Below, piece by piece: positions 9,952-62,589 of a stretch of DNA of 64,000 nt. The translations under genes were made by a program, and so were the position numbers. The notes beneath the pieces were generated by a model. It did not search any database, was not told the origin of the DNA, and was given only the letters and a program-made list of their open reading frames with translations. This DNA comes from Trichoplax sp. H2 (Eukaryota). Where the stretch lies: positions 496,001-560,000 of the forward strand of contig NOWV01000012.1 in the NCBI GenBank assembly GCA_003344405.1, written 5' to 3'. Each line of letters begins with the position of its first letter. The first letter of the stretch is position 1.

Positions 9952-10745
9952 CAGGCCTAGATACAGTACGCGTACACGTCGAGTACAGTATAGTATTAGT
10001 GAGTTACAGTACTGTATACTGTACAGTAAAGACTCAAAGTACTGTACTGTATAGTAAAGACCCACAGTACGCTACAGTACATGTACTGTAAGCGCATATC
10101 AATACGTCATCGACTATACTGCAGCTATCGACGGCACTAGAGACCCTCTATGAGATAGAGGGTTTCTAGACGGTACCAGTGTCAAAGTGGGCGGAGTACA
10201 GTACACTCAGTAGAGTACTGCTAACTTATGTACTGTACACTGTACAGTAGAGCACAGTACTTTGTGCATTAATTAATATATTTAAATTATTTAATTTATA
10301 TATACAGATAATTAAGAAATATATCCATCAAAAAGTAAAACAAGGAGTACTACTCCAGGCCTATATGTACAGTGCGCGTACACGAAGAGTACAGTACAGT
10401 ATACTGTAGTATTAGTGAGTTATAGTACAGTATACTGTACTGTACGGTACAGTAAAGACCCACAGTACACTACAGTACATGTACTGTAAGCGCATATCAA
10501 TACGTCATCGACTACAGTACTGTACTGCAGCTATCGACGGCACGAGAGATCCTCTACTGTATGAGATAGAAGGTCTCGAGACGGCACCGGTGTCAAAGTG
10601 GGCGGAGTACAGTACACTCAGTAGAGTACTGGGAACTTACTTAACTACTGTACAGTATGTACTGTACTTTGTGCATTAATGAATAAATTTAAATTATTTA
10701 ATTTATATATACAGTTAATTCAGAAATATCCATCAAAAAGTAAAA
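9952..10745. repeat. ~400-bp direct tandem duplication upstream of PPP1R21
   Basis: Copy A ~9952-10340 and copy B ~10356-10745 share e.g. gtaagcgcatatcaatacgtcatcgact, gtgtcaaagtgggcggagtacagtacactcagtagagtactg and catcaaaaagtaaaa. They differ by substitutions and CAGTA/CTGTA indels. Confidence 0.9.
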
Positions 10746-13700
10746 AAAAGATGGACTAGTTCCAAGTAACTAATAAATAACTTATCACTGTGCCTACGTA
10801 TTTAAGTCTGATTTGCGTTCCAGGTAGCTACTAATATTAAGTCGAATAATGTGATATCTAGCAAAATCAAACCATCGACAGGTGTAATTCTGAGAGGATT
10901 CTCTTGACCGCCAACTCACTTAATTGTTATCGTAAAGAGAGATATCGTTCGAGCTAGAATTCTACAATATCTTGTAGGCTTGTACAGTAGAACGAGCTTT
11001 GAAGTGATATTTTCGAACACTTGTATCAACTTTATTTATTTTAAATTATAATATCCATATCTTTATGTTATTCCTCTAATACATCAGCCGCTGATCTTAG
11101 TTCATTAATTTATAGTTAACAGCATTGCTAGTTATAATTACGGCATTATAATAATCGTCAAACAGCCAGCCCTTCCCGCTAGATTTACAAACCGCAGTAT
11201 TGCGGATATCTCTACATACTGTGTTTATAATTTGATAGCCATTATTTGTGTTATACCCATACAATGTCCTGTACATACTCCACCTAAAAATGAAGTATGC
11301 GATTATAATAAAATGCATAGTATTATTCATTCTTTATTCTTGCATTTGAATATAAATAATTGCATTCCTAATTTTATGCATCATTCCTGCATGCTCTAAA
11401 TAATCATCGATTCAAAAGATTCCATTTTCTGTATATTTGAATAAATACAGCAAAATAATATGCACTTGTAAAGTATTGTCAAGCCGTTAGAGGACCATAC
11501 AAAGTGGAAATACATAAGTGACTTTAACCTAAAACGATGTGGAACGCAGTTCTACGAGTTCTATAGGTTGCAAGTTTATGTATAAAGCATGAATTTAAAA
11601 TTTTGTAAATTAGAATGGAATAACATATTATTCTGTAAAATCGGAAGTTATATCTGCTAACAACAACAGATCGGATTTTATAGTGACTGATAACTTAATC
11701 ATAAATCGTTACCCACTTCACCTAGCATCTACATCAATATAATTAAGCTTAATCTTATAATTTTTTTAGGGGATTTTTTATGACTAATGGAGTTCCAGAA
11801 ATTTCGATTTTTGTATATTCGTGTATCTTAACTCAACATGTTACCCTCGTAATGTTATACTGTATATTAACTCGGTTTTTGGTTGGCTTAAGCAATGAAA
11901 ATCCAATTGATTTTTGAAATGTTATAATTTATGACTCGTAAATCATGAACGCCGTACGTGCGTATCAATTACTGTACAATAACTTAAATATCAACCGAAA
12001 CTGCAAAAGATGACGTACTTAGGATAACAGTATCACAATAATCGATTTATCAGCTTCATTCTAAATCATTATTCATTAATTACTGTAATTAATGAATGAA
12101 TGAAATCTCATAAATTACATATAGAACTAATTATTTTGTTATTAATATTATACTACTAGTGTATGCCCACGAACTCTGTTCGTTGGTTGTGGTTATTTAA
12201 AGTTGTACTTTATTCGATAGCTTCGTCAGTATTATTGTACTATACTGAAAACTTTCTAACCACTTCGTATGTACAGTACAATATAGAATGAATGTGCTTG
12301 CTCCAGGGGCCAGTCGGTATGATGTCAACGTGCGCGTCACTCAAGAGCACGTGACAGTCAGTGATGGAAGCTACAAAATCAGTTCTTACGCAGTCTGTGC
12401 TGTACGGTGTAGTGTAGTGTTACAGTAGTTGAGTAATGAAGCAGAACCAGGAAGAGGCCTCCGAACTTCGGAGTACAGTACAGCAAAAGTTGAACTCCGA
12501 CACAATGTACACTACTGGGCGGTCAGCTAGACCTGTCGGCCGTCTTGATCCGGAAAAACAAGGGTGGGGTAGATGGATGAAATGTTTACGTATTTATTTT
12601 ACCGAACTTACAGTACTGTATATTATTTTTTTGGAGATATTGTGCTGTTCTGTACTAAGGTGTTTCAGATCGAACTAGTGCAAAGAATACACTTTAGGGC
12701 TTGATATCCCTTCATATTTTTATAATATCAGATAATTATAATAATTATTACTGTATTTTGCTACTCAACAGAGTCTACTGTGCTTGTTATTTGGTGCTGT
12801 TGGGACTTGGGAGTGAGGATTTTACCAATGCTCTGCAGTGCGACTGTTCGTCATTATTGCCACTAGTAAGCACCAACAGCATTTCAGTGTGTAGTGCACG
12901 CCTGTGTTTGGATTAACTCAAATGGCTAGTGTATTAGCTACTAAGCACATGTATTTAACTCTAGGCCTTGGGTTTCAACGAGCTCGCTAGTTGTAGGAGA
13001 ATTTAGTTATGCGTATACTCGTATGCTTATCGCTAAGGTTAGTCATGAAGTACGGGGATATTATCATTAATTAAATAAAAAAAATAAAAATAAATATACC
13101 GTGCAGTATAATAAATAAACAAACATAGAATTATAATAAAAATAAGTGCATTTCTAGGTCGCGGTTACTCCACGCGGGACTTGTCCAAGTGCAGTTGTAA
13201 AATGTTCATAAAATTTTATAAGGCACAGCACAGCAATAATATACACATATAATCAGAACTTTGAAATCGGAATGTTAGCTCTGTCTTTACAGTAAATAAA
13301 TTGTTGGTATTACCTTCGTTCTAATGTTCTGCTCTTCTAACAGATATGGCAGTTAATTAATTGATTAAGAATTAGAATAATTATCATAATTATTAATAAG
13401 CGATAAATACTAAAGTGTTACTATATGCTGTGTTACTACTGTTCCATCTTTAATATGCTGTAATCTCGAATTTGTAATGACAAAGTTTTCCAAGTGTAAA
13501 TTTAAAATATGCGTAGTTTGAATTAAAATAAAATTAATTTTAAAAATTCTACAAAATTTCGTCTCAAGAAGCAGGCGCACACGTGAAAAAGTACAGTACT
13601 GCACTGTCTTGACAATGTGATCTTCAAATTTCGGACAGTTACTACTGTATGTGCGTCGTGATATACTGAAATTAAAAAGTTTTACAGTCCTAAATCCTAT

Positions 13701-14446
13701 GATATGGCTGAAAGCATGATCGGATACTCTTATAATGGAGAATATAGTGAGCACCGGGATAATTACAATCCTTCATTTGTTGCATTTTTCAGTACAATAT
13801 ACTAAAGGTATCAAAATGCAAAAAAAGCAGTCAGTAAGCAGCAATAAAGCTTGTTTTTATGAAACTATTTGGTAATTTTTTGATTCATACTACAGTAGTA
13901 CACCATGGAGACATGGATGTACGGTATTTCACTGTCAATAGTTATAGTCAATACAGTAATAATATTATAATCATTAGTAATAAAATTTTAAATAATAATA
14001 ATTTTTAATTATTTGTTAAATCAGCTTTTGCAGTCCATAATACAGTGCTAAGAGGTTGGTGATTACAGTACTGTACTGTACACTAGTGTACAGTACAGTA
14101 CAGTACAGTCCAATCTGGTGTACAGTACAGTACGCTAGTGCAGTTCAGGGTTCGCTACAGTGCATTGAAGTCAGTGCAATTCCACATAGTGGATAGTACC
14201 GTGCAGTAGTGTAGCGTACTGGGTGATGTGCAAGGTCAAATTACTGATAGAGCGAAGAATTTTGAGTATGCATGAACTAGTAATTCTCACATTGGCTGAA
14301 TGTCGATCATCCTTACTGTACCGCCCATTATATCCCTAGCACCGCCCAAGCCAAGAAAACGTGACAAAAGAACAGCCATTTAATCGCATATGGTGGCAGC
14401 TTATTGTCTTCGTAAGTGATTACATATTGTGGCCTGTCGAAAGCTG

Positions 14447-14665: not shown

Positions 14666-14746
14666 TGGTAAACGTGATAGGGCATCTTTCAACACATTAA
14701 TGTGTGTGTATCTGGCGGCTAAACCTTGTAGCGAGACCGAAGGAAG

Positions 14747-15847
14747 ATGGCAGCCCCTTCCAATCATTATAGCGTGACTGTTTCTTCTACGGCTTCTACG
14801 AATGATCCAAGAATGGCTACGCCAATAAATGTTCAGAGTCAATTCGCACAAGTGCATAAAGTAGTTCAATTTCAGGATCCTAATCAACAAGTACAAGCTA
14901 ATGTTGTCGGTGATAGAATGGGAGGCAGCCGTATGCCTCCGCCTCAACCGTGGCCTTTACCGGAAAGCGGCGGCCAAGTTCCTTGGCCAGTAACTACAGC
15001 TACTTCTCAAAATTTAATCGATATCAAACCGCATAGGCATGAAGATGGTCAAGTAACTATGGCTGGTCCTATACCTTTGCATGCTCGCCCTCAATTAGTC
15101 CCAGCACATGCGCATCCAGGTATGATGGAGCATCCCCGCTGGCCTACAGGACCTGCTGCAGGACAAGTTCATCCTGATCAGAGATCGCATCTAAATGCCA
15201 ATGCACAAATTGCTTATCCTATTAATGGTTGTGTACCTGGCCAAACGATGCCGTCTCATGTTGGTCCTCCACCACCACATATGAGAGAACAACGTGAGAA
15301 CGATAAGCCAGGTAATGAGAATCAATCGGAAGACACACCCACATCAGACGACCTAGAACAGTTCGCTAAGCAATTCAAGCAGAGGAGAATCAAGTTAGGC
15401 TACACACAAGCTGATGTTGGCCTTGCTTTAGGTAGCTTGTACGGTAATGTTTTTAGCCAGACAACGATCTGTCGTTTTGAGGCTTTGCAACTTAGCTTCA
15501 AAAATATGTGTAAATTGAAACCGTTACTGAACAAATGGCTTGAACAAGCCGATAGCAATAATAGTAACCCAAGTGCTGTTGATAAAGTAGCAACGCAAGG
15601 AAGGAAGCGTAAAAAGCGTACCTCTATTGAAGTAGCTGTAAAAGGAGCCTTAGAAAATCATTTTCTTAAACAATCTAAGCCATCTGCACAAGATATTGGT
15701 TCATTAGCCAACACTCTACAATTAGATAAAGAGGTTGTGCGTGTATGGTTCTGTAACAGGAGGCAGAAAGAGAAACGACTTAATTCAGCAATGTCAGGTA
15801 ATGGCGAGGATTCACATTTATTGGTGGAGTCACAGATGAATCAGTAA
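14747..15847 (+). CDS. POU3: Class III POU-homeodomain transcription factor (Brn/POU3F-like), single exon
   Basis: 366-aa ORF with a POU-specific domain ([28 protein letters not shown]...[25 protein letters not shown]), a class III-type linker ([17 protein letters not shown]) and a homeodomain ([15 protein letters not shown]). Confidence 0.96.
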
Positions 15848-17853: not shown

Positions 17854-20537
17854 TCAGAGGCTCTTTTCTTTTGCCTTCTGCACTAAGCACAGTACTACCA
17901 TCGTGATGGTTTTACAATGCAGTGTGTATATTGGTACCTTATTGAATTAATCTAATTTAACAGTAAATGGGAAATATCTGACCTGCAGTAAAAAATGAAA
18001 TGGCTCACCAGCCATAATTCTTCCTTCGAAGCCTCCGTTTTTACTGTACTGTACAGTACTTTGCACACGGCGTACTGAGCAGAGACTGTACTGTACTGTA
18101 CGGTACAGTACAGTACTGTATAGTCCTTCGTTATCGAGTTAGGCCTGCCACACCTTTGAATTGGCTAACTGTACTGTACTGTGTTAGGACCTGTACAGTA
18201 CAGTACCATACTCAACTGCAGTACTGTAGAGACTCTTTATAAGAGATTACAGTTTTATTAGCCAGTTCAGTACAGTAGTCACTGTAACTTGTATGTGTTC
18301 TCATTGAACCGAATTTTATCAGTTAAACTCATGCATAAGCTGCTTACGAAATATGCTTACATGAAAACTGATTCATCAGTATACAGTATATACTGTACGG
18401 TAGAATTACCGAAATATCAAAATGAGATCAATAAAGGTTGTACAATGTACAGTAAATAGCTATCCATAACGGCAAGAAGATTTACAGTACAATGTGTACA
18501 CTGTACTGTACTCAGTACATGCTGCATGTCTGCCACCTTTTCTGTCTGTCTGAAGTTTTTGTATTGCAGTACAGTACTGTACATATAGTATTGTACACTG
18601 TACAGTGTACCGTTCACGGTACACCACATACAGTACTGTACAGTACTGTACAGTACCGTAGTACAGTACTGTACACTGTACAGTCGTGTACTGTACGGAC
18701 TGTATTTTAGCGTTCAGTATTATAAGCAAAGACTTCTGGGAATCAGGTCCTTTTGCCCTGCTGGCTGTTTCTACGATAGAAAAGAAAAATGGTAGGTATC
18801 AAGATCATCGTGAGGTGGAATCATCTGTTTTATATCGTTAACATCGTTCATTTAATCCTCTTTTTATCTGTAAATTTGATCGTATCGTACATTTTTTTTA
18901 AAAGTTATGATGATAGCAATGTATTTTTAAATTGTAAAACGTTTTTATAGCACCATTTTAAAGTGCGTGTCGTTTGTTTCAGTTCAATACGGTAGACAAC
19001 CTAACGTGGTTCAGTCGACTCTCCACTGTGTTAAAGTAGAAGATATAGTTTGTTGTAGTCCACTATACTGCATTAAATTCGATGTGTATCTGGATCTAGT
19101 TTTAATTTTCAAGTTATTTCTAANNNNNNNNNNNNNNNNNNNNTCAGAGGCTCTTTTCTTTTGCCTTCTGCACTAAGTACAGTACTACCATCGTGATGGT
19201 GTTACAATGCAGTGTGTATATTGGTACCTTATTTAATTAATCTAATTTAACAGTAAATGGGAAATATCTGACCTGCAGTAAAAAATGAAATGGCTCACCA
19301 GCCATAATTCTTCCTTCGAAGCCTCAGTTTTTACTGTACTGTAAAGTGTACAGTACTTTGCACACGGCGTACTGAGCAGAGACTGTACTGTGCTACAGTA
19401 CTGTACAGTACAGTACAGTATAGTCCTTCGTTATCGAGTTAGGCTTGCCACACCTTTGAATTGGCTAACTGTACAGTACAGTACAGTACTGTACTGTGTT
19501 AGGTCCTGTACAGTACACTGTACAGTGTACAGTACAGTACCATACTCAACTGCAGTACTGTAGAGACTCTTTATAAGAGACTACAGTTTTATTAGCCAGT
19601 TCAGTACAGTAGTTACTGTAACTTGTCTGTGTTCTCATTGAACCGAATTTTATTAGTCATTCATCAAGTTAAACTCATGCATAAGCTGCTTACGAAATAT
19701 GCTTACATGAAAACTGATTCATCAGTATATATACTGTACGGTAGAATTACCGAAATATCAAAATGAGATCAATAAAGGTTGTACAATAAATAGCTATCCA
19801 TAACGGCAAGAAGATTTACAGTACAATGTGTACACTGTACTGTACTCAGTACATGCTGCATGTCTGCCACCTTTTCTGTCTGTCTGAAGTTTTTGTATTA
19901 CAGTACAGTACTGTATAGTACTGTACAGTATTGTACACTGTACTGTACAGTAGTAGTCTATGTCATCCGAGCTTGTAAGTCTACAGTGAAAAGTCATATT
20001 CGCTACAGTACGAGTCACGCCCATCCCGCCATGTACAGTATTTTAAACACTGCTGTACAGTACAGTACCGGACAGTACAGTACTGTACACTGTACAGTCG
20101 TGTACTGTACGGACTGTATTTTAGCGTTCAGTATTATAAGCAAAGACTTCTGGGAATCAGGTCCTTTTGCCCTGCTGGCTGTTTCTACGATAGAAAAGAA
20201 AAATGGTAGGTATCAAGATCATCGTGAGGTGGAATCATCTGTTTTATATCGTTAACATCGTTCATTTAATCCTCTTTTTATCTGTAAATTTGATCGTATC
20301 GTACATTTTTTTTAAAAGTTATGATGATAGCAATGTATTTTTAAATTGTAAAACGTTTTTATAGCACCGTTTTAAAGTGCGTGTCGTTTGTTTCAGTTCA
20401 ATACGGTAGACAACCTAACGTGGTTCAGTCGACTCTCCACTGTGTTAAAGTAGAAGATATAGTTTGTTCTAGTCCACTATACTGCATTAAATTCGATGTG
20501 TATCTGGATCTAGTTTTAATTTTCAAGTTATTTCTAA
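17854..20537. repeat. ~1.3-kb direct duplication flanking a 20-N assembly gap (probable uncollapsed haplotypes)
   Basis: 17854-19123 is repeated at 19144-20537 and N20 occupies 19124-19143. Copy A ends exactly at the gap and copy B starts exactly after it. Both copies contain RPS4 exon 1. Confidence 0.9.
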
Positions 20538-22740
20538 GTTTTACATACAGCATCTTTTACATCATGCTGAGTGCAGAGAATTTCAAAATCACTTGATATG
20601 GCTTGAAATAAGGTGTTACGGTACGCGTATACTTTTATTAATAGAGCGCCATTTGTAATTGAACTCATTTAGGCACGAGGCCCAAAGAAGCACTTGAAGC
20701 GTCTTCATGCGCCTAAGCATTGGATGCTTGATAAGCTTTCAGGATCATTTGTGAGTAGATTTATCATCTAATGATAGTTCGATTCTTAATTAATCTTTGT
20801 CAGTAATCACGATGGCTGTGTTTCTTCATGATTTTACAACTGAGTGGGCAGACCAAAGCGTGTACGAGTATCCGGCTTTCAGCTCAGTATTGCAATTTAC
20901 TGTAAAACTACGGATACTGTAGTTTAATATTACAAATTGTTTTAGATCATCAATTAGTAATATTACAATATTTGTTACCTGGGTTGTACAGTATAGGCAA
21001 TAAGCTGCATGAAGACACTATTGTGATATAAATGAGCTGATTACGAAATCATCCATTCACGGCTGGTATCATTCACTATTATAAATATTACAGTAAACTA
21101 TGTACGATAGAGTACAGCATACATACTGTACGTAATGTATAAAGTAGTTCAGTTTTGATCTATTTTTGCTCTATACACTATTTTATGTCCCTGGCAGTTC
21201 TACTATACCGTATTCATAGAGTTTGTATTTATACACAGTTGTAAAGTAGTTACCATACTATACTCCTTTAGTAGACTCTCGTGGTATGCTGAACTAATGG
21301 TTTGCAACTTTACACTGCTCATAGAATCGGTTCATTTGCAAACTAAAGTTAGACTAGATCTCGAGATCCACAATGTAGTTTATTTCATAGCGAATTTATC
21401 AAGCTTGCAGGTCTTTAGCTTCCATCAATGAATTATCAGTTTTAGAAAGCTGAGATGACAAGCATATTTATGCATACGTATACGATAGTTATAGCTAATC
21501 CCTAGGCAATAAATTTTACCGATTGTCCAAATACTATGTCGTATTTACAGTAAACAAACACATGCTTACAACAAAGTTCTGTCGTTGAAATTTTAAAAAT
21601 TTCTGATTAAACTATGTGGATTACTTAGCTGATAAACTAATGCTTTATGCGCTTACTATTTTAGGCTCCTCGCCCGTCTTGTGGTCCGCATAAATTTCGT
21701 GAATGCTTGCCCTTAGCTATTTTTATGAGAAATCGTTTGAAATATGCGTTGACATATGATGAAGTAAAGAAAATTGTCAAGCAGCGTCTGATCAAGATTG
21801 ACGGAAAAGTTCGCACGGACATCACCTATCCGGCTGGGTTTATGGGTGAGTATTTCGTAGCATGGTTTGTTTATATAAGTTGCATTACACTCTTTACTGC
21901 GAAATATTGCCTTCATTTATACTACCTTGTATAATAATTAAAATTTATAAGCGCTTAGTACCCGCGATATACATTATGTTGTACTGTAATTGTATAGTAT
22001 ATGGATATAGCTTTCCAGATATATTTATGGTTATTTAGTCAAGATACTAGTTAAATACGTAGAATAGTAATTGATTAATCTTTATACTAATGTTAACAAT
22101 TACATGATTGATCCCTTTTCCTAGATGTAATTGCTATTGAAAAAACTGGAGAAAACTTTCGTTTACTTTATGACGCTAAAGGTCGATTTACTGTTCACCG
22201 CATTACGCCTGAGGAAGCATCTGTAAATATGATCATAGTTACAGTTTTTCGTGATATGATTGGTAGGTTATAGCTCTTGGAATTAATTTTATAATTTTTA
22301 ATCATTAGTACAAGTTATGCAAGGTGAAACAACTTCAAATTGGCGCGAAGGGTATCCCATATGCAGTAACCCATGACGCTCGTACTATTCGTTATCCTGA
22401 CCCATTAGTTAAAGTGAATGATACCATCAAGGTTGACCTTAAATCTGGAAAAATAACCGACTTTCTCAAATTTGACAGTGGTAATCAAGTTATGGCAATT
22501 GGCGGACGTAACATGGGTAGAATTGGGGTTATTACTCATCGTGAACGACATTCTGGATCTTTTGACATCGTTCATGTCAAAGATGCCCAAGGGAACGCCT
22601 TTGCTACGCGATTGACTAATGTGTTCGTAATCGGCAAGGGTACTAAGCCTTACGTTTCTTTGCCTCGTGGTAAAGGTATTCGTCTGACAATTGCGGAAGA
22701 ACGTGACAAACGTTTGCAAGGGAAGCAATCAAATATGTAG
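20203..22740 (+). CDS. RPS4: 40S ribosomal protein S4 (eS4), 5 coding exons
   Basis: ATG|gtaggt at 20203-20205, downstream of a pyrimidine-rich TCT-like start (~20162). Exons: 20673-20750 ([22 protein letters not shown]), 21665-21845, 22125-22222 and 22309-22740 (...[20 protein letters not shown]). Confidence 0.97.
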
Positions 22741-24003: not shown

Positions 24004-24880
24004 AAAAGCGAATGCAGGTGTATACTGTATAGTACACTTGTTGTATACAGTACAGTAGAGGGTCTCTGGTATAACAGTACTGTACACTATTGTACAGGTC
24101 TGTATACTGTACAGTAGAACCAATACAGGTAAAAGAAAAAAAAATCTTTCCTTCTCGAGTACAGTACTGTACTGTACAGTACATCATACGGTACAACACA
24201 GTACATTATACGGTATGCTACAGTACATTACACGGTACTATACTGTACTGTCCTGGACCGCGCCGTACCGTACTATACTGTACTGTACACTCAGTGTGCT
24301 GTACAGTGTACAGTACAAAAGCGAATGCAGGTATACTGTACTGTACTGTATACTGTAGTACTGTACTGTACACTTGTTGTGCTGTACGTAAGTACACTGA
24401 TAGTGTAGTATACAGTACTGTACACTATTGTACAGCCAGTACAGGTCTGCCATATAGAACCAATACAAGTACAATAAAAGAAAAAAAATCTTTCCTTCTC
24501 GAGTACAGTACAGTACATTATACGGTAAAAACAGTACACTGTACGGTATACTACAGTACATTATACGGTACTATGCTGTACTGTCCTGGACCACGCCGTG
24601 CCGTACTATACTGTAGTGTAGTATACTGTACAGTACAGTACCGTATTGTACTGTACAATGTACTGTACTGTACTGTACTGTATACTGTAGAACTAATACA
24701 GTACAAGTAAAAGAAAAAAAATCTTTCCTTCTCGAGTACAGTACGTTATACGGTGAAACACAGTACAATGTACGGTATGCTACAGTACATTACACGGTAC
24801 TATACGGTACTGTACCGCACCGTACAGTGTACAGTACACTATCACGGTATGACCACGAGGGCTTGCACAGTACAGTACTG
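24004..24880. repeat. Degenerate ~3-copy tandem repeat saturated with TACAGTA/TACTGTA/TACGGTA modules, upstream of CCT8
   Basis: Anchor aaaagaaaaaaaatctttccttctcgagtacagta at ~24131, 24476 and 24709; aaaagcgaatgcagg at ~24004 and 24317; ctgtcctggacc occurs twice. Confidence 0.85.
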
Positions 24881-25060: not shown

Positions 25061-28000
25061 ATGGCTCTTCATATACCTCGTGGGATGTTACAAACTATGA
25101 TGAAAGATGGCGCAAAGGTAAAATGAAATTTTGCATTCAAGAAAAGTCTGATAGTGTGCCAATATTACCTGAAAATGACAAATTGGAGACCAGTTGACTG
25201 AGATAGATAGACTTAGATATTACTACTAAAAAATATCATTCGATAGTGCTATCCTTACAATGATACAGTCATAAATTATAGGATGACTTTAAGTATGATA
25301 GTCCACTATGGAGTGCAGAAGAAAGTTGGATGTAGAGGTATTGATCGATGGATATCGTAGACTCGACTAAGGTGGTCTTTGACAAATTGGAGAGGTAGCC
25401 GTACGCTATACTGTAGTTACTTTTCACGAAGTGTATTCTGCGATACTGTACTAGATAGACAGCCTTGTAGTCCAGTTCTTCCACCGATCTGCTGCCTAGT
25501 GACGCTTTATCCAGCGATAAAGTTATAAAATTTCTTACTTTATACATCGCTTTCAAAGAGTCATGATATACGATTATGTAGTAAACAACGTATAGAAGTA
25601 AGATAAATGAAAGATATGTAATTGGGTCATACAATTATTCTAAATTGACATTTTTGATGTAATTCATCTGATGTTCAAACCACTATTGAAATAAATTTGA
25701 ATTTATCTTCATCTGTTCATCTATATTTGAGGCATAAGCAATGCTGTACTGACTTTATTCTCCTATAGTATAGTACAGTAATTAACTCATGGCTTTTATA
25801 ATATCAATTTCCAGCATTTTAGTGGCTTTGATGAGGCTATCTTGCGCAATTTAAATGCCGCTAAAGAATTAGCGCGCATGACGCGGACTTCGTACGGCCC
25901 AAATGGGATGAATAAAATGATTATTAATCATATCGAAAAATTATTCGTTAGTAACGATGCCGCAACCATGATTAAAGAAATGGAGGTAAGTTCGTAAGAT
26001 ATTCTCAAATTAATTTTTATTTAGTTTTCTAATTATACTTATTCAATGCTAATTCCCTTGTGTGCTAATTAGGTTCAACATCCTGCTGCAAAAATGCTTG
26101 TGTATTCTTTACAAATGCAGGAGCAAGAGGTAACCGATCACACACAGTACTTTATCTCCAATATCAATTACTTGCCAAACAAAAACGACTTTTGTTCTCG
26201 CATAATCGTTTTAGATTGGAGATGGAACTAACTTCGTAATCATATTTGCTGGAGCGTTATTGGAGCTAGCAGAAGATTTACTAAGAATGGTACGTTGCAA
26301 AAAACAGTCACAACGATACAGTACACTAGTTGACGTATGTTCGACAATATCGTCAAATTGAAAGAGTACGCTCTTTTCTCTTGCTACTGTAAATCAACGC
26401 ACTATTTACTGTACATTACTAAATTAAGCAAACTTTGTATGGTACCGTGCATCAGATTGAATTATGATTATTTTCATCTTTGTTTTGATAGGGTTTATCA
26501 CCAACCGAGATTATTGAAGGGTATGAAATGGCATGCAAAAAAGCGATTGAAATATTGCCTGGTAACCAATTGCCGTTTTGACAATTTGTGGCTTCATTAG
26601 TGTTCCATTTATGATAACGTAGAAATTTAACATTGGGAATTTACTTTAATCATATCTTTTCTCTAGATCTTGTTTGTGGTAAGGTATCAAATCTTCGTGA
26701 TGAGAGTGACGTGGGTAACGCTATCAGAACTTCTGTGGCAAGTAAACAGGTAAATTATAACGATATTACAAGAGATTGTTTGAATAGGAACTAAGGTCTT
26801 TGTTCTATTTTATTTTTAGTATGGTTATGAAGGTTTTCTATCTGATTTGATTGCTAAAGCCTGTAGTAAGTTGATGGATAATTGAATGTATCCACCTGTA
26901 ACTGTAGTAAAATTGATAACGTAAACTAGGACAGTTGTTGTGGACAGACTCGATACTATTAGTATATTTAATTTTTAATTTGTATTTTTCAAGTCAGTAC
27001 AGTTGGAGCTAGTGATCGTGTTCTCTTCAACGTGGATAATGTCCGGGTGGCCAAAATATTAGGATCGGGAGTTCTCAGATCTAGTGTTCTTCGAGGAATG
27101 GTATTTAGAAGAGGAATTGAAGGCAAGGGAGAAAGTTTTTAAGATATTTACAACCCACGGACTTTTTTAAAATTCTAACTAAATGCAATGTTTTTGTTAT
27201 ACTGCTTATTAGGTGAAATTAAAGAATTGAAAAACGCTAAAGTTGTAGTTTATTCTTGTCCAGTTGATATTAGTCAAACTGAAACCAAAGGCACTGTACT
27301 ATTGAAGTCAGCCGACGAACTATTGGAATTCAGTAAAGGGGAAGAGACTATTCTTGAGGCAGTATGTATACTGTTATGTAGTCCTTATAAAATAGTAGTG
27401 ATGAATGAGTAGATTATTATAATTTTTTGGTCTGCGCGCAATTATTTTCTAAATATCTGTATTCTATTACTTTGAAATGTTTGGTTATTAGCAAATCCAA
27501 GCAATTGCTAACACTGGATGTAATATTGTTGTTTCTGGCGGTAAAGTTGGTGAAATGGCTCTTCACTTTTTGAATAAATTTAAAATTATGGTTGTAAGGT
27601 AAAAGAATACAGTTACATTATTGATTGATTTCTTTGTTGACAGTCATTATAAAGGCTTGTATAAATTTGTAACTTCTACAATTATAATCTATACAGAATC
27701 CCTTCTAAATTTGACCTTCGACGATTGTGCCGAACTGTAGGAGCAACTGCATTACCAAAAATTGTAATATACCTTTGCAGTCATTTCTTATTGCTGTACT
27801 GGTCACTTCGTTAGCACGTATAACTTCATGTCTCGTTCTATTATTTAGATGCCGCCTACAGCGGATGAATGTGGCAGTTGTGATCGAGTTTATTTAACCG
27901 AAATTGGCGATAATACTGTTACAGTATTTGATCAATGTAATTTAATATATTGTAGCGCTATCTATCGTTATATTCATCAATTTTCTGCACTCTATTGCAA

Positions 28001-29496: not shown

Positions 29497-32400
29497 TTAT
29501 AAACCAAATGGGTCTTGTGGTTGCAATGGTGGTCGTTGAAATGCTGCTTGCGGTTGTGATTGGGTTGGAAACATATTTTGCTGTTGGAATGGATTTAACT
29601 ATAAAAATGAGAATTGGGTTGGCAATTAAATTGAGAGTAGAATAAGAGGCTTCAGTTTATCCAACTTACAGGGTTAACGGGTTGCTGCATAGCCATCGGC
29701 TGTGTAAACTGTTGTTGAGGAAACTAGTTTTCGTTATTAAAATGTTAAAATAAGTGTAATAGTTAGTACTATAATAGTGGGTATAATACTGCTGTAGATT
29801 TCGCCTTGAATAGAAAAAAGGACATATTAATTTCCCTAAAGAAAATATAAGGACAATTTACCCCCGCAGTCTGTTGCTGGTTCCAAGTGCCAGGTTGTCC
29901 CCAGGTTGTAGTTGTAGTAGCGGCAATCGGTCTAAATTGATAATTATCTCCTCCGGTTAATTTTTGTGGTTGAGATGGTGTCCATTGATGTTTCGATCTA
30001 TTTATTATACGGTATAATAAAGAGTTTTAACAATAGTACTATTCGTCAAGATATTCAACAGTTGCAAGTATATCTATTCTAACTCACTTTTTACTGGCCA
30101 TAACTGATCCTTTTGCAGGAACAGTGGCATTAGTGTTACGCAAGGCTGTAAAGAAAATATAGTCGATCAATTCGTATATATAAATTAAACAATTATTGGC
30201 CATCATTAATTCATGTGTTACGCTACGTACTCAGATTTTCAGCGGCCTTCGCTAAGCTAGAATCCAAATCATTCGATAATTGGGCATTTGAATCATTATT
30301 TTGAATCTGTTGGGCTTTCTCTGTTCCAAGAACGGTCGGTTGCATAACTCCAGCAAATACTTTAAATGTAACAATAAAGTTAATAAACTACTTTTGTACT
30401 GGATAAAGTGAGAAAATTTTTAAAGACTACTTACGATCTAATGGTTGATCACTGTTCGAGTTGGGGGCATCTTTAAAATTAGCTTTAAATGGTTCGTTAT
30501 TTGCTACAGGTTAATGTAATAGGGTACATATTAATAGAAATCAAATGTTCGTAATTGCTGAAATTAATACACGCTTCCTCTATAATATGCAATTTTATTT
30601 TTGTCGTATACTGTATATTACTACAGTAAGATGAAACTAGCAAATACGCTCAACGTCAAGACTAATATATTGAGATGGAAATCTCCATATAAGTATGTAG
30701 AATGCTTTAAAGATTCATATTCTTTCAAACTTTATTCAACAGCTGAAATAGCTGCACTCTAACTTTTAATCTTATATTTTAAGATACCTTGTGGCACTTG
30801 ATTGAAATTTGCATTAAACGATTCAGCTAAAAATAATGATTGAAATTAAACGAGAAGTAGGAATTATATCGTAATTGATGTAATTTATTCATCTAGTATT
30901 ATATTCTATTTTATTTTTCTATATTTTTACCTTGTGTTGGTTGATTAAAATTCGTATTAAATTGCATAGCAGGAGCAGCTAAAATAAACATTGAAATACA
31001 GTATAAGTACTTCCAGAACTTATATCATAGTAACATATCTATGGTATTTCATTTATAGTTGTAAAGGTATTTTATGATTCAGTTGGCGTTATATATAGTA
31101 ATTGTTCTGTGTTTATGACTGATAGGCGTAAAACATCATTTAATTTTGTTGAAAGAACCTTGAGGCTGTTGCTGAGATTGCCAGAGAGAATTTCCAGCAC
31201 CACTTTGAGCGCCTGTAGGTTGCGAAGGAAAAATACCTCCAAGATCAGTTAGATCATTCTTTGGTACTGTCGGTTGCTGTGGTGATACAGAGCTGGCCAT
31301 AGGCGACTGTTGAAAAGGATCAGCTTGAGGACTAGTAACAGTTGGCTGCGATTGAAAAGGATCAATTTGAGGTTTAGCAACAGTTGGCTGCTGTTGGAAC
31401 AGATCAGCTTGAGGACTAGCAACAGTAGGCTGCGGTTGACTGTTTGAATTGAAAGGATCGAACGCTGTACGTTGCTGTTTTGGTTGCTCAGCAGGGGCAT
31501 TGTTGAATGGTTCAAAAGTATCAAATGAAGGAGTCTTTTCAGTTGGAGTGGGCTGTGGTGAATTTGGTGATATTAAATTTGGTTGTTGTTGAGGGGTTTG
31601 CGGTTTTGCTTGATTTGCGGTAGCAGAACCGGGTGCAACGTTGAGACTGTAAGCTCTTTGCTATAGATAAATGATACAGGATCTACATTCATATCACGTT
31701 CTACATATTAAATTATCAAGCAGTATTGCAGTATAACCTTCAATATTTCCATATTTTGGATTTCCGCTTTTGCTTTCTCTATTTCTTCAGTTGAAGCTTT
31801 GCCTCTGTATTAAATGGAAATGGGTATTTAATTAATGATAGCAATTCATTCATTATTTTACATGTGTTTTAAGTTTGAGTGAATGCGTACTTGGCTCCTT
31901 TTTTATCTAGACCGTAAAAATGATTCTCTAGGGCCTCGAGTAAGCTTGCAGGTGCCTAATAATAAGTTCAATACCAAGTTCGATTTAATTATGTACTTAT
32001 CTGTGCCAAAATGATACAAAACGTTCATCACTTACAGAATTGAGATATGGAATATCCCCTTTGTCGTATCCACGATCCTAAATGCATATATATATATTTG
32101 TGACTTTACTATTCAGGATCTACTTGATATAGTGCTTTCAGATAATTATTTTCAATTGAGCTAACCTCAGCTATTTTCCAAAATTCTTTAACTTTTTCCA
32201 TTGTGACAACAAATTTTTTATAAAACTCTAATGCATCCTTACAGCTCTTTTTGCTTAAATCAAAATATTTCTCTATATGTAATACAGAGGAGAGGAAGAA
32301 CTAGTCAAGAGATGTTATTCAAATTTATGCGTAAAAAAAATTTTTGCTCAGACAGATTTTGTATTTATTACTTCAGAATATTTAGTACACACCTAATAGG

Positions 32401-37128: not shown

Positions 37129-37613
37129 ATGAAGGCCTTGAAGGTAGCACTACCGTTAACACCAAAGGCTACGGTAGACTGTTTAGGCCTTGAAGGTAGC
37201 TTTAATTCCATATCAAACATCGAATAACCTCTAAACCCTATCGTTGTTTCTAATTACACATCAATGTTGCATCGAGAAGTTAAATTGAATCCCCCCAAAA
37301 AGACAGTGATGGTCACGCTACGTTCCCATAGTAAAGCACTTCAAAGGTTAATGAAGGCCTTGAAGGTAGTACCACCGTCAACACCAAAGGCTACGGTAGA
37401 CTGTTTAGGCCTTGAAGGTAGCTTTAATTCCATATTAAACATCGAATAACCTCTAAACCCTATCGTTGTTTCTAATTACACATCAATGTTGCATCGAGAA
37501 GTTAAATTGAATCCCCCAAAAAAGACAGTGATGGTCACGCTACGTTCCCATAGTAAAGCACTTCAAAGGTTAATGAAGGCCTTGAAGGTAGTACCACCGT
37601 CAACACCAAAGGC
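37129..37613. repeat. 222-bp tandem repeat, ~2.2 near-identical copies
   Basis: atgaaggccttgaaggtag at 37129, 37351 and 37573. This also explains the twin ORFs at 37264 and 37486. Confidence 0.92.
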
Positions 37614-37861: not shown

Positions 37862-38150
37862 ATATAAGGAATGCATTGGCAGTTTCAATCCAAAAGTAGG
37901 TCATGGACAGCTTGAAGGGATAAGCATTGATGGACAGTACAACTTCCATACATGTATTATATAAGGAATGCAGTGGCAGTTTCCACCCAAAAGTAGGTCA
38001 TGGACAGCTTGAAGGGATAAGCATTGATGGACAGTACAACTTCCATACATGTGTTATATAAGGAATGCAGTGGCAGTTTCCACCCAAAAGTAGGTCATGG
38101 ACAGCTTGAAGGAATAGGCATTGATGTACAGTACAACTCCCATACATGTA
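37862..38150. repeat. 97-bp tandem repeat, 3 copies
   Basis: ataaggaatgca...caaaagtaggtcatggacagcttgaagg...cagtacaac starts at 37864, 37961 and 38058. Confidence 0.92.
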
Positions 38151-41511: not shown

Positions 41512-51980
<10,469 letters not shown>

Positions 51981-52519
51981 TTTCCAAGTTTGTCTATATT
52001 ACTAGTGAGATAAATTAGTCATTGCTTACCGATGAATCACTGTACACTATGTTGTACGCGACCCGCTTAAAATTGTTTGTAATGGCTTATTACGTACTTT
52101 CAACAGTTCTTTCCTTTCTTTCTTTGGCTACGGAGGGACCAGTGAATAGACTGAATACTCCTTTACAGTACAGTATACTGTAGAGTATGGTCCAGTATGG
52201 TCTAGTCCAGGATGACTGTTAATAGAACTTGTGCTGAGTACAGTACAGTACAGTCCACTCCAGTACAGTGTACAGTGTACAGTACGTATTGTACGGTACT
52301 GTAGTGTTTGAATGTGTCCATGAGCTACAGTACTGTACAGTACAGGATCTGTTCAAGGGGGCATTTGACGACGCATGCACGTCGAGCGTTGACATACTGT
52401 ACAGTACAGTACAGTACAGTACTGTACACAGTACTAGTAAATAAATCAATACTGAACTGTACTGTACAGTACTGTACTTGACAACAAAGCAAATACTGTA
52501 CTGTACAGTACTGTACAGT

Positions 52520-52927
52520 ATACTGTAGGCGTCCAGTACTACTGTACTGTACAGTACTGTACTGGACGCCTACAGTATGAGTACAAGGATACAACTGTAC
52601 AGTACAGTACAGTACTCCGTACAGTACACTGCTGTACTGTAGAGTAGAGACTGAGAAGAATCTGAATGCAATTGTACAGTACAGTAAGTTGGGGCTGTGA
52701 GCCTGCGCACTGTACTGGGCTATTAACTTATCTTATTGTACTGTACTGTACTGTACTGGACGCCTACAGTATGAATACAAGGATACAAGTGTACTGTACT
52801 GAGTACTGTACAGTACACTACTGTACTGTAGACTACAGTAGAGACTGAGAAGAATCTGATTGCAATTATACTGTACTGTACTGTAAGTTGGGGCTGTGAG
52901 CCTGCGCACTGTACTGTGCTATTAACT
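52520..52927. repeat. ~194-bp direct duplication plus 20-bp inverted repeat in the BRWD/DHDDS divergent promoter
   Basis: tactggacgcctacagtatga at 52560 and 52754; agttggggctgtgagcctgcgcactgtactg occurs twice; atactgtaggcgtccagtac (52520-52539) is the reverse complement of 52559-52578. Confidence 0.85.
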
Positions 52928-53431
52928 CATCTTATCTCACCTGTCCCAATGAAAGATTGATTGTACTGTACTGTACAGTACTGTACACTGTACACTGTAC
53001 AGTACGTCATTACCATGACGTGTGAACGGACCGGACTGGACTGTGCCGAGGGTTAACTGCCGGTACGGTCACGGACTGGCGAGACAAATACAGTACGATG
53101 AAATACCCAATTACAATACTGTACAGTACAGTACAGTAATTACACCAGTGCTGTACTGTACAGTACAGTGTACAGTACTGGTCTTCCAATGTACAAGTTT
53201 TCACTGTACGTCACGTCACGTCTATTGCAATATTACATGTGTTGCTAGTTGAGAGTCGACTCAGTTGAAGCATACGAAAGCGTCAAAACCTTGCCTTGCA
53301 GATGGATACAGCCATGGCTTCTGCTCCTTCCAATGTGCTATAATTCATTCATTAAAGCGAAATTTTCAATTCAGAACACTGTCAGTTAAGCCTAGGTGTA
53401 CACTTGCTAATTGTTAACACAGTCTATTGAG

Positions 53432-55767
53432 ATGGCACTGACTACACGTAGCGATAGAGGCAATCAAGAAAGCAATTCTGCTTGGTTCCCCGAGAGGAAA
53501 GACCCTGGCTTCATTCAAAAATTTTGCTGTAAAGTCATCAAGGCCGGTGAGATACCCAAACATGTCGCCTTTATCATGGATGGAAATAGAAGATATGCAT
53601 TGAAAATGAACTACTCGAGGATTATTGGTCATTCCATGGGATTCGATAAATTAGCAGAGGTATCTTGATTAATTCATTTTACTGTACGATACTGTATGAT
53701 AATATGAGCTGCAGGACGTGCCCCCCACTACCAGTACTACAGTACAGTACAGCAGTATCTTATTACTGCCTAGAATGTTCTTCACAGGTGACCATAAACA
53801 AGCTGGTGTGTATTATGAAACAGTAATAGCAAAATTAATTTAGTGTTGCTTATAGAATTGTATGCAATTGAAAATAGTCTATAACATGGATGGACTATAA
53901 CTGCATATGTGCTAATAGGATACATACTATACATTAGTCAAATGAAATATCGATTGCTTTATCATAATGTCCTATCACAAAATAATGATACCCCAACGTT
54001 GTAGACATTGGAATGGTGCTTAGATTTAGGCATCAAAGAAGTGACAGTATACGCTTTCAGCATTGAAAACTTTAAACGTTCCAAGAAGGAAGTGGAAGAT
54101 TTAATGAAATTAGCCAAAGGAAAATTTGACAGATTGTTACTGGAAAGGTAATCTTGGTATTGCTACATTGATCAATAATTGCAGCCAATTCCTTGCTAGG
54201 CTACTACAGCAGTTCGCTGTGTGTCAAGTCTGGACTTAGTCTATATTTGGATCTATTTTCTGATCAGAGATAAAATCGACAAGCATGGTATTTGTATTAG
54301 AATCTTTGGCGATATTAGTTTGCTACCTCCAGATGTCCAAGTTGCTGTTGCCAACACAGTTAAAATATCTCGGCATAATAACAGGTTCTACTCATACATT
54401 TGCAATTTTTTAGTAATGTACAATAGTTGAATATCAAATACAAGTATTTCTATTCAACCGAGGGCTAATTGACATTGACTGTTTATAGGGCGTTCTTAAA
54501 TGTATGCTTAGCTTATACTGCCAGAAATGAGATGACAAATGCTATGAAGGAATTAGCGATAGGAGTCGAAAATCAAATGTTACGACCGAGGTTAGTCTTT
54601 AGCCGTGTCCTGGATTTGTCCTAAATTCAATTCTTATTGTTATTGTCTATTAATGATTGATTGCCTATATGTCAATTGATAGCGATATTTGCGAAGATCT
54701 TTTGGAAAAATGCATGTATACTGGCGAAGCTACCCAACCAGATCTAATCATTAGGACATCTGGAGAAGTGCGATTAAGTGATTTCTTACTGTGGCAAGTA
54801 AGGCGTAATTTTATGTTACACGACGTTTAGGTTATTATCCCAAGCATCCATTTTATCTAGTTACCAAAATGAGACTAAAATCTTGACATTTACAACATCA
54901 TATTTCTTCAATGCAAGAGTGCCTATTCATGCTTGACCTTTCTTGATGTATATTGGCCCGAATTTACGATTTGGAATTTTTTATGGTGTATTATACGATT
55001 TCAATTAAGTTACCAAAAGATTAAGGTAAGGAATACTTTAAATTATCTCGTAATTATCCTTTTATCTTCTTATGATGCCGCAATAGCTAAAAAGTTTCAA
55101 CTTATTGAACATTGTTGATAAATAATATAATTGGTAGGACGGCAAACAATATAACAATCAAATGAAGGAACATTTACAACATGTATCAGACAAGGAGAAT
55201 GCCTTAAAAGAAGCTTGTAAGTATTATCAAAGATCCATAGGTGGATGCTGATTATTGTTTCAGCAAATTATGAGAACATCTACAGTTATACTTGATGCTG
55301 AAAAGCTAGTAGAGTGGTAGTAAATTTACCAACATATCTATCAATCTTATTAAACGTGGTTATAATTACTTTCATTGGCTATTTAACTTTAAAATATTAT
55401 GATTACATCGTTAGTTAAATCGTCATTAAAAATTTTTCTATTCCATGGTGAAAGAAACCTTTTATTAATTGATGGTTTCTTGATCTATAATTTTGTTTAT
55501 TAGCCGCTAGCTGGCAGAATATTCTAAATACTTTTTTTTTTTTAATATAGTAAGCTATTTAAAATAATTACAAAATATCAAATTCCACTATTATGACATA
55601 TTATAACTACTGTAATAAATTTAGGTATGGCGGGAGAAGTAAATACGAACATGGATGATATCATCAAGCGATATAGGCAAGAACGTGAGAAGCGAGTTAA
55701 TAAATTCATAAATTATTTGCACAATAAAAGATTGGAATTTGTGAATGCATTAAGCAATCTTGATTAG
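53432..55767 (+). CDS. DHDDS: Dehydrodolichyl diphosphate synthase (cis-prenyltransferase), multi-exon
   Basis: [63 protein letters not shown]; stop at 55765-55767. Confidence 0.95.
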
Positions 55768-60300: not shown

Positions 60301-61103
60301 ATCGCCATTATGATGATATTGATGAGCGATACCTTAACTGTCGATCCCTACATCAAGTTAATGAGATTACTCAAGCGTGAACAAGGAGATTATGAATGGG
60401 TAAAGGGAAAAACGTAACGTAAGATATATTTTGGAATAAATGTTATCATCTTTTTGCTCTAGCTAAAGAGAATAGTCGACGCATCCCTTATAATTAATTA
60501 TTCAATACGACAAGACGATCAGTCGGATATAGTTGACACTAGACAGTACAGGATATCGTAGAATTGGTACAAGTACGGATAGTGGTTTCTGCAGGATGTT
60601 GTGACCTTTACTGAAAGTTTCCTATATCGTAATTATAAGAAACTAATATCGCCTACGATAGAAAGAATAACTACTACAGTGCGTAATACTTTCTATATCG
60701 CTAGTAAATTATGTTCCTAATTCATTCAATAGTATCCTAGTGTAGAGTAGTGTAGTTACGGTGGAGTAGAAAGTAGATTCAGTAATGCTACGTGTACTGT
60801 GGGTTATTTTGCAATTGAAGTACTTGTTGACACCACAGTCAAGACTGATCTTTTTTCGCTACTATAAGAAGATGAAAATAGGTACTTACATCCCCAATTG
60901 AAAGGAGTTGAAGGATTTTTATCGGTTGTATCTTTGTCATCATCATTGGTAATTTGGTCATTTTGATGGTCATCTTGATTATGATCAGGTTGTTTCTCGT
61001 CTTTGCTGGTTGATTCTACATCCTTGTCGCTTTGATGGTCGGTATTTGTATCTTGGTTTGCTTCGTCTGACTGAGAATAAAACCAATTCTTCAAGTTTAA
61101 CAT
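57332..61103 (-). CDS. SYAP1: Synapse-associated protein 1 (BSD domain), multi-exon
   Basis: Start MLNLKNWF at 61103; [63 protein letters not shown] (BSD domain); [11 protein letters not shown]; stop at 57332-57334. Confidence 0.92.
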
Positions 61104-61329
61104 TGAGTGATACTTTAATTTACATGGAATAAGAAGTAAGACTATCCTAATTTCAATCACTTTCTCCAAGTAGTTACTTGATATTGTTGACAAAAAAAAA
61201 ATGCAATTGAGCAAACCCACAATCGAGATCGATTCCTCACCATCAAGATGTGTAAGTACTGTACTGTACTGTACTGTACAGTACAGTACTGTAGTCGAGT
61301 GACGAACTGTACACTGTACACTGTACAGT

Positions 61330-62205
61330 ACTGCATCTTTTTTCTTTCTGTTGGGAATGTCTCTCTGTCTGCTCTGTCCATACCTCAATCGGATACAGTG
61401 TACTGTACTGTACTACTTCTTTTTTCCTTTCTTTTGGGAATGTCTCTCTGTCTGCTCTGTCCACACCACAATAGGATACAGTGTACAGTGTACAGTACAG
61501 ACAGTACACTTGTCCAGCTGTACTGTACACTGTACACTGTACTGCATCTTTTTTTCTTTCTTTTGGGGTGTCATTCCGTCTGCTCTGTCCATACCTCAAT
61601 AGGATTCAGTACACTTGTCCAGCTGAACTGTACAGTACACTGTACTGCATCTCTTTTTCTTTCTTTCTTTTGGGAATGTCTCTCTGTCTGCTCTGTCCAT
61701 ACCTCAATAGGATACAGTGTACAGTACTGGACACTTGTCCAACTGAACTGTACAGTACACTGTACTGTACACTCACTACTGCATCATTTTTTCTTTCTTT
61801 TGGGAATGTCTCCCTGTCTGCTCTGTCCATACCTCAATAGGATACAGTGTACAGTACTGTACAGTACACTTGTCCAACTGAACTGTACAGTACACTGTAC
61901 TGTACTGTACTGTACAGTACATTCACTACTGCATCTTTTTTTCTTTCGTTTGGGAATGTCTCTCTGTCTTCTCTGTCCATACCTCAATAGGATACAGTAC
62001 TGCATCTTTTTTCCTTTCTTTTCGGAAGATCCTCCTGTCTGTTCTGTCCGTACCTCAATAGGATACAGTGTACAGTGTACAGTACAATACACTTGTCCAG
62101 CTGTACACTGTACTGTACAGTACTACACACTACTGCATCTTTTTTTCTTTCTTTTGGGAATGTCTCTCTGTCTGTCCTGCCCATACCTCAATAGGATACA
62201 GTGTA
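61330..62205. repeat. ~8-copy minisatellite: conserved ~65-bp core separated by variable TACAG/CTGTA tracts
   Basis: Core gcatcttttttctttcttttgggaatgtctctctgtctgctctgtccatacctcaataggatacag recurs, with ggatacag-like ends at ~61391, 61474, 61602, 61710, 61839, 61989, 62061 and 62194. Confidence 0.9.
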
Positions 62206-62589
62206 CTCTTTACAGTGCACAGTGTACAGTCAATCTGCTTCAGTACAGATCAAACGACTTTTACATACTGTATGACCATTGAGATGCAAATGGCCTTACC
62301 TCCAAGCACCTTGCAAAGGTTTGCAAGCACATAAACCATCTAGATATTCAACAGCCTGCGAATGAAGAAAAAGTGAAATCAGCTAAAAGCCTACTGTTTA
62401 TTGGTATAATAAGCTTCATATCCAGGAAAAGACAGGAATAATACTCTTTTCAACGTGGATGGAATGAAATGAACTCGATGTAAACGTGTTTGCAGCGAAG
62501 AGGAATTTTCACTTCGATTGATTAAATTATAGAACAAATTAAGTCGTTGCAGAACTTTGACGTAGATAGCAAATTAGTTGACATCAAGA

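Follow-up and report, generated by a model that had tools for sequence, protein, structure and literature searches.

TA-bounded modules over a GTAC core form hypermutable mosaic tracts at gene 5' ends in a 64-kb window of Trichoplax sp. H2

In this work we describe the architecture, variability and genomic placement of short-repeat tracts in a 64,000-nucleotide window of the placozoan Trichoplax sp. H2 (assembly GCA_003344405.1, contig NOWV01000012.1, positions 496,001 to 560,000 of the forward strand; "the window" denotes this whole stretch, and all positions are counted from its first letter). Each tract is a mosaic of TA-bounded modules over a palindromic GTAC core. The modules are of two kinds, a 5-nt module made of CWG plus TA (W being A or T) and a 7-nt module made of CAGTG or CACTG plus TA. 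As hypermutable sequences, the tracts vary between copies of a locus mainly through the gain and loss of whole modules. They belong to the (ACAGT)n class of Trichoplax promoter repeat described in 2010, and the tracts themselves are therefore a rediscovery; what is unusual about them is the random alternation of A- and T-centred units inside single arrays. Our preferred account, which we think has an even chance of being correct, is endogenous instability of a self-complementary repeat lattice whose tracts are retained at promoters.

The window is AT-rich (35% G+C) and gene-dense, and the words that build the tracts occur in it far in excess of expectation. TACAGTA is present 166 times and TACTGTA 162 times, next to 26 copies of TACGGTA and 11 of TACCGTA, while the two longer words TACAGTGTA and TACACTGTA are found 20 times each. 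Taken together, the 328 occurrences of TACWGTA compare with 18.82 +/- 4.16 in dinucleotide-preserving shuffles, none of 100 of which attained 328. The dense mixed patches that the original prediction had singled out, eight in number, are real: they occupy 5,188 bp (8.1% of the window) and contain 237 of the 328 occurrences, at densities of 28.5-98.8 per kb inside the patches vs 1.55 per kb outside them.

Successive GTACs lie mainly 5 nt (162 cases) or 7 nt (40) apart, less often 10 nt (20) or 12 nt (11). In the 5-nt unit (n=162), position five is A in 84 cases, T in 73, G in 3 and C in 2, and the 7-nt units read GTAC plus ACT (20) or GTAC plus AGT (12). Both orientations and both unit lengths are therefore mixed within the tracts, as had been claimed, and calling the tracts mosaics of TA-bounded modules was right. 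Tandem Repeats Finder (TRF) output is dominated by period-5 TACAG/TACTG rows, and the window contains 14 pure runs of at least three units; judged by TRF rows, GTAC spacings and pure runs, ACAGT/ACTGT is its commonest short tandem unit. Since arrays of TACAG and TACTG are reverse complements around GTAC, the co-occurrence of both words is not unusual in itself. The order of A- and T-centred units within 5-nt chains showed no significant periodicity (16/26 alike at lag 2, 4/11 at lag 3). In a tally of adjacencies, 7-nt units stood beside 5-nt units of the same sense in 19 cases vs 8 of opposite sense, which suggests local derivation rather than independent events. A search of Rfam matched no family.

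Heptamers also occur singly. In the 58,005 bp outside the patches TACWGTA is the commonest 7-mer, with 90 occurrences vs 8-19 for composition-matched words, and what is enriched there is the heptamer with its bounding TAs and not a fragment of some GTAC array: among 75 single units outside the patches a G precedes in 13/75 and a C follows in 20/75, which is background, while for multi-unit runs the corresponding figures are 38/73 and 49/73. No target-site consensus was apparent around 78 lone heptamers, whose flanks are near background, and in gene bodies heptamers showed no transcription-strand bias (30 vs 33). They are scattered through non-coding DNA and are common in introns; the earlier statement that the modules are sparse in introns is accordingly right relative to the patches and does not extend to the window at large, given the rank of the heptamer outside them. 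Outside the patches TACWGTA exceeds expectation 6.9-fold and all 20 of its one-letter neighbours lie at 0.7-3.7x, with TACSGTA (S being G or C) at 3.1x, comparable to other AT-to-GC transitions. Decay by point mutation thus appears alike at all positions, which suggests that modules are born whole by a mutational process, and such even decay fits the neutral loss of whole-born units better than it fits a position-tolerant binding site.

The variability of the tracts is most readily seen at the RPS4 promoter, which is written twice in the window. Self-comparison identified 17854-19123 (1,270 bp) and 19144-20537 (1,394 bp) as the same locus, in dovetail overlap across the only N run of the window (19124-19143), and the duplicates are probably two alleles left unmerged at a scaffold gap, that is, a false duplication. 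The duplicated 1.3-kb stretch takes in exon 1 of RPS4 along with a divergent neighbour's first exon, and gene models there would gain a spurious extra first exon. The patches at 18040-18700 and 19330-20120, counted separately in the original prediction, are one locus given twice, so that the eight patches represent seven loci. Outside the tracts the two copies differ at 14/977 aligned sites (98.6% identical) and by 2 indels; the tract columns, 341 of 1,406, account for 9/11 indels and 24/281 mismatches. Indel sizes are 7, 3, 15, 19, 12, 5, 7, 6, 65, 7 and 2 bp. The copies hence vary in length partly by whole units (5, 7, 7, 7, 15 and 19 bp), with the 15- and 19-bp indels each spanning several modules.

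In addition to single modules, larger blocks have been multiplied. TRF reports periods of 10, 12, 15, 21-22 and 194 bp in the patches, and the patches have clearly been built in part by blocks of 10 to about 400 bp duplicating in tandem. For example, the PPP1R21 tract consists of two tandem copies of about 400 bp (9948-10346 and 10352-10751, 81% alike), each holding GTACW modules and a 15+15-nt hairpin. By description alone, this hairpin is a candidate for, and may be, the transposable element (TE)-borne "ACGG" insulation or loop-anchor motif of the literature. The CCT8 tract contains an internal duplication (24019-24372 vs 24354-24705) as well as higher-order units of 21-22 bp, each composed of four degenerate TACNN modules including TACGG and repeated about 3-4 times; much of the surplus of TACGGTA (26) relative to TACCGTA (11) stems from these units. 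A 194-bp unit is present twice in the tract between BRWD and DHDDS, and between the BSD and helicase genes the tract comprises eight copies of a satellite of about 83-130 bp (61300-62230) that share a conserved core rich in pyrimidines; the GTACW tracts flanking them vary in unit number and type among copies. Excision footprints would be unable to make duplicated blocks of this kind, which indicates that some slippage or unequal exchange is at work.

The position of the tracts relative to genes was established from Pfam scans of stop-free open reading frames (ORFs) of at least 50 amino acids (aa) that do not lie mostly inside patches. Excluding ORFs more than half inside patches reduced the sets from 168 to 136 on the + strand and from 180 to 151 on the - strand, where one further ORF (112-264) was dropped, so that 136 (+) and 150 (-) were scanned. 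Pfam recognised POU, RPS4, CCT8, DHDDS and a DEAD helicase on the + strand, and PPP1R21, an ANTH/PICALM-like gene, BRWD and a BSD (SYAP1-like) gene on the - strand. The 5' ends were fixed by single-ORF Pfam scans together with tblastn using a named CCT8 protein, and RPS4 exon 1, the divergent - strand exon and the first exon of PPP1R21 were read directly from the sequence. With gene strands assigned in this way, each patch lies 5' of at least one gene. This is true of 7/7 loci, 6/7 of which are no more than about 0.6 kb from a start codon or first exon and three of which sit between divergent genes; the remaining tract lies about 1.5 kb upstream, counted from the N-terminal exon of the ANTH gene, whose true 5' end is uncertain. 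By comparison, the three 3'-to-3' intergenic stretches contain 0, 3 and 2 TACWGTA, and no TACWGTA was found in the 11 Pfam-supported coding ORFs checked. Within the window, then, the promoter focus of the patches and their absence from the coding exons checked stand as originally described, and the genome-wide enrichment at gene starts that had been set as a test was already published by Wang et al. (2010). That survey of Trichoplax adhaerens (Wang, Zhang, Meyer and Bao, Biol Direct 5:18) reported 11,697 microsatellites, 61.8% of them pentanucleotides, and found ACAGT to account for 78% of the latter, with 54% and 85% of ACAGT loci lying within 1 and 5 kb, respectively, upstream of genes. Ribosomal-protein and kinase genes were enriched near ACAGT, and a role as transcription-factor binding site (TFBS) was proposed.

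We consider that these features are best brought together by endogenous instability of the lattice. Modules would arise by replication slippage and unequal exchange over the self-complementary lattice, and by short templated insertions primed on TA microhomology in break repair; the tracts would persist at promoters either because they are tolerated there or because they have a putative use as open-chromatin or insulation elements. The tracts may act as cis-elements, a role that agrees with the literature. Instability of this kind explains the block structure and the hypermutability.

A number of observations nevertheless weigh against it, chief among them the composition of the arrays. Metagenome contigs carrying at least five uninterrupted TACWG units served as a control and provided at least 112 loci (L001-L112). 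The 112 loci listed hold 166 pure arrays and 15 mixed ones; neighbouring units are alike in 1,101/1,131 cases (97%), and the share of the minor orientation is below 0.1 at 84 loci. Arrays of at least five units in the window are pure in 0/5 cases, with 10/23 neighbours alike; those of 2-4 units are 22 pure and 25 mixed, vs 238 and 16 in the control loci listed; and across all 5-nt chains of the window 30/59 neighbours are alike, vs 27.4 +/- 3.8 in shuffles. Slippage should give pure arrays, as it does in the control loci listed, and the window arrays are mixed. Since the control arrays share the GTAC core, self-complementarity alone does not explain the mosaic. The A/T mosaic is a peculiarity that goes with this genome and not with the ACAGT unit; it is rare elsewhere without being unique. 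Four of the metagenome contigs (L058, L059, L066 and L090) are also A/T-mixed, and L066 repeats the central-base pattern TAAATTAA. Furthermore, the background flanks of the lone heptamers indicate that these are not what is left of GTAC arrays. Three pairs of local copies, which are paralogous or probably allelic and not proven haplotypes, yield 21 internal indels, and 2/21 are of exactly five bases, TA becoming TA-CWG-TA, with no identical unit adjoining. One is the TACAG at 18382-18386, an unpolarised difference of TA vs TA-CAG-TA outside arrays; the other, the TACTGTA at 10555-10561, breaks a left hairpin arm that is intact in copy 1, which marks it as a derived 5-nt insertion at a non-array TA. 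Indels are thus not confined to sites beside identical units, a point on which the original prediction had staked its reading. Templated insertion, moreover, is an inferred step, and endogenous instability leaves the random central base in this lineage unexplained.

It is on these same points that a transpositional origin, the reading of the original prediction, gains its appeal. A low-copy Tc1/mariner-type element with CAGTG...CACTG ends would insert at TA in open promoter chromatin and then excise, an explanation that we regard as a serious but improbable one. A 3-nt stagger would leave TA-CWG-TA, its middle base set to A or T by random repair of the mismatch; where CAGTG ends are cut with a 5-nt stagger, TACA(G/C)TGTA, the two 7-nt modules, would be expected; and each scar would add a TA target, leading to stacked arrays that slippage and block duplication then amplify. 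It is true that Sleeping Beauty excision leaves TA-CAG-TA or TA-CTG-TA, as the original prediction stated: TACAGTA and TACTGTA are the canonical footprints of that element (PMC6943129; bioRxiv 10.1101/659086). The match with those words amounts to a single 7-mer coincidence, because the second is the reverse complement of the first. A coin-flip central base is what a randomly repaired mismatch predicts, and the independence of neighbouring A and T (30/59 alike, from 84 A and 73 T) against the 97% agreement of the control loci listed fits it well. So do the rank of the lone heptamer and its background flanks, the uniform decay of its one-letter variants, the absence of strand bias in gene bodies, and, at TAs outside arrays, the two differences of TA vs TA-CWG-TA, of which one could be polarised as an insertion. 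Units per TA site are roughly geometric, at 223/49/30/21/6/2/2/2 observed vs 198/81/33/14/6/2/1/0.4 from an urn model, although the fit is imperfect, with singles too few (49 vs 81) and runs of at least three too many. What is missing is the transposon. No transposase family was recognised by Pfam among the 286 ORFs scanned, and although 154 TA-CAG...CTG-TA pairs reach 18/24 arm matches, none of the 40 listed (those with the fewest GTAC in their arms) resembled an element; nearly all of their arms are GTAC lattice or lie in or beside a patch, the positions of matches within arms being left unchecked. In T. adhaerens, Wang et al. (2010) found TEs to make up 0.13% of the genome, none active and none represented among 14,572 expressed sequence tags, with MITEs (miniature inverted-repeat transposable elements) being rare (one family of about 20 copies); their mariner/Tc1 record comprises 11 degraded pieces without terminal inverted repeats (TIRs), three of them with intact, single-copy ORFs that speak for this reading. 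For nine tract indels to separate copies that are 1.4% apart, the element would have to be very active today, the 15- and 19-bp indels and the higher-order units require duplication in any case, and the same-sense adjacency of 7-nt and 5-nt units (19 vs 8) also counts against independent scars. Patches share their modules only, with no matches after perfect arrays are masked. The non-canonical scars TACATA (33), TATGTA (32) and TACGTA (26) are not enriched outside patches over the 41, 40 and 26 expected; this is weak evidence, because canonical scars predominate in several cell types (PMC6943129; bioRxiv 10.1101/659086). In sum, the mosaic, the lone units and the two TA insertions agree with stacked Tc1/mariner scars, the window offers neither element nor transposase, and the claim is neither shown nor refuted. 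The footprint model explains the random central base and the lone heptamers and lacks its transposon, and we consider it rather unlikely that the tracts are the log of a Tc1-like element, or of a transposase derived from one, hopping in placozoan promoters.

Binding-site clusters and dispersed TE copies fit less well than either the instability or the footprint model. If a placozoan factor recognised TACWGTA, or GTAC at 5-nt spacing, the tracts could be homotypic clusters of its sites kept by selection, their repetitive look being a by-product, and we regard this as distinctly unlikely. The placement of tracts at 5' ends and between divergent genes would suit such clusters, as would the rarity of a central G or C in arrays (5/162), the TFBS role proposed by Wang et al. 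(2010) and the link between ACAGT and chromatin patterns drawn in PMC12817080. A binding site should, however, tolerate change at some positions more than at others, and the one-letter variants decay evenly, without position-specific tolerance; many module indels separate the copies of a promoter, so that individual sites are not conserved; introns commonly hold lone heptamers, which have no strand preference; selection cannot itself create 5-nt insertions at TA; and our literature search yielded no binding factor. Five TE-derived transcription factors have been predicted in Trichoplax (Mukherjee and Moroz 2023). Finally, the patches could be dispersed copies of a transposon or MITE, for example of Mutator type, with the modules forming part of its terminal repeats. 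Such an origin would have parallels in the Mutator insertions, bearing a loop-anchor motif in their TIRs, that have been reported in placozoan housekeeping (GP1) promoters (Kim et al. 2025, Nature 642:1097), and in the repeating ACGG motif that, along with repeating ACAGT, a network (Chimaera) trained on T. adhaerens Micro-C maps recovers as tied to chromatin patterns and that is attributed to a TE (PMC12817080, 2026); TACGGTA is enriched in the window, with 26 copies, and ACGG flanks the hairpin at 10137-10169. Against it, patches more than 1.6 kb apart show no similarity at E<=0.01 once perfect arrays are masked, and no TIR pair among the 40 of 154 listed resembled an element, so that we hold this explanation to be very improbable.

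The tracts and the features associated with them are collected in Table 1.

Table 1. Coordinates of module tracts, tract components and neighbouring exons in the window.
Feature	Position	Strand	Description
PPP1R21 tract	9948-10751	- (gene)	PPP1R21_C by Pfam; first exon ATG-CG/GTAAGT near 9930
PPP1R21 hairpins	10137-10169 (copy 1), 10543-10580 (copy 2)		GACGG either side, then GGGCGG box
TACTGTA insertion	10555-10561		In PPP1R21 copy 2; copy 1 near 10150 has TA only
POU tract	14060-14140		8 TACWGTA in 81 bp; about 600 bp upstream of ATG 14747
POU gene	14732-15847	+	POU and homeodomain by Pfam; POU3-class, single-exon
Divergent neighbour of RPS4, first exon	18002-18015	-	ATGGCTG/GTGAGC
RPS4 tract, copy A	18040-18700		Fills bidirectional promoter of about 770 bp
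TACAG in (TA)n run	18382-18386		In copy A only, missing from copy B
RPS4 exon 1, copy A	ATG about 18789	+	ATG then GTAGGT
N run	19124-19143		20 N
RPS4 tract, copy B	19330-20120	+ (gene)	Exon 1 ATG about 20203; last exon 22309-22740
CCT8 tract	24019-24880	+ (gene)	Upstream of CCT8 exon 1 (25061-25117)
21-22-bp units of CCT8 tract	24165-24248, 24509-24570, 24737-24799		
ANTH domain, N-terminal exon	35289-35549	-	Pfam
ANTH-gene tract	37020-37100		4 TACWGTA; self-complementary, small; weakest patch
BRWD/DHDDS tract	52160-53180		Between divergent BRWD (-) and DHDDS (+); densest, 63 TACWGTA
DHDDS N-terminal Prenyltransf exon	53411-53665	+	
BSD/helicase tract	61250-62230		Between BSD/SYAP1-like gene (-) and DEAD helicase (+)

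Among the neighbouring genes, CCT8 has an 81-aa exon that matches TRIADDRAFT_25783 of Trichoplax adhaerens at 100% identity, the next matches reaching 77-81%, and its exon 1 is likewise 100% identical to the T. adhaerens protein. The closest named relatives of the POU protein are cnidarian, at about 50%, and a search with the BRWD exon against longer proteins gave no match. Between the PPP1R21 and POU tracts, the roughly 3.3 kb at 10750-14060 hold about 14 lone TACWGTA (about 4 per kb), an unusually dense scatter, and no Pfam-recognisable ORF. Two ORFs enter the satellite at 61.3-62.2 kb, one of 202 aa (60804-61412, -) and one of 363 aa (61191-62282, +); the latter runs across the whole satellite and is probably spurious.

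Several further repeats and a compositional anomaly were noted between the CCT8 gene and the region beyond the 37.0-kb tract. A 42-bp repeat, a multiple of three, is present 3.1 times at 31309-31439 within an ORF of 174 aa on the - strand (31136-31660) that Pfam does not match and that may be a repetitive coding exon of a gene between the CCT8 and ANTH genes. At 35600-37000, between the N-terminal ANTH exon and the small tract, the + strand is strongly purine-rich, with GC skew of about +0.2 and AT skew of up to +0.16, and many overlapping - strand ORFs there have no Pfam match. Just beyond the tract lie two unrelated tandem repeats, of 222 bp (2.2 copies, 97%; 37125-37613) and 97 bp (3 copies, 95%; 37862-38152), whose copies, unlike those of the GTAC tracts, are free of indels; a 135-aa - strand ORF (37998-38405) overlaps the 97-bp repeat and has no Pfam match.

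Why ACAGT is so abundant in Trichoplax has been a puzzle since 2010, one that touches current work on the three-dimensional hubs of placozoan promoters. We did not find in print the random A/T mosaic, the TA-bounded heptamer that is born whole and decays evenly, or copy differences of the form TA to TA-CWG-TA. Either a conservative transposon has marked almost every promoter, or a quirk of placozoan repair or replication seeds the units, and either origin bears on the rise of regulatory DNA in the compact genome of an early-branching animal. If true, a log of excision footprints would explain the mosaic, the lone heptamers and a genome that is rich in pentanucleotides yet nearly free of transposons, and the scars would later have been co-opted as promoter or insulator DNA.

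Together these results place the tracts among several known systems. With the ACAGT microsatellite of Wang et al. (2010) they share the genus, the unit, the upstream bias and the link to ribosomal and housekeeping genes (here RPS4 and CCT8); that work concerns perfect repeats only, and the parts of it drawn on here describe no A/T mosaic, 7-nt units, lone heptamers or footprint idea. The word "footprint" occurs 0 times in it, and we found no paper linking the ACAGT tracts of Trichoplax to excision footprints. Sleeping Beauty/Tc1 footprints offer identical TA-bounded 7-bp words, the same central A/T ambiguity and a gain of 5 bp at TA, but elsewhere they occur as single scars, not as promoter arrays, and no donor element is known here. 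Ordinary (ACAGT)n in metagenome contigs has the same unit and palindromic GTAC core, whereas its arrays, in the loci listed, are pure. The Mutator-TIR motif of Kim et al. (2025), compared by description, is similarly a lineage-specific, repeat-derived feature of housekeeping promoters involved in three-dimensional contacts, and differs in being TE-borne and, according to PMC12817080, of ACGG rather than ACAGT type.

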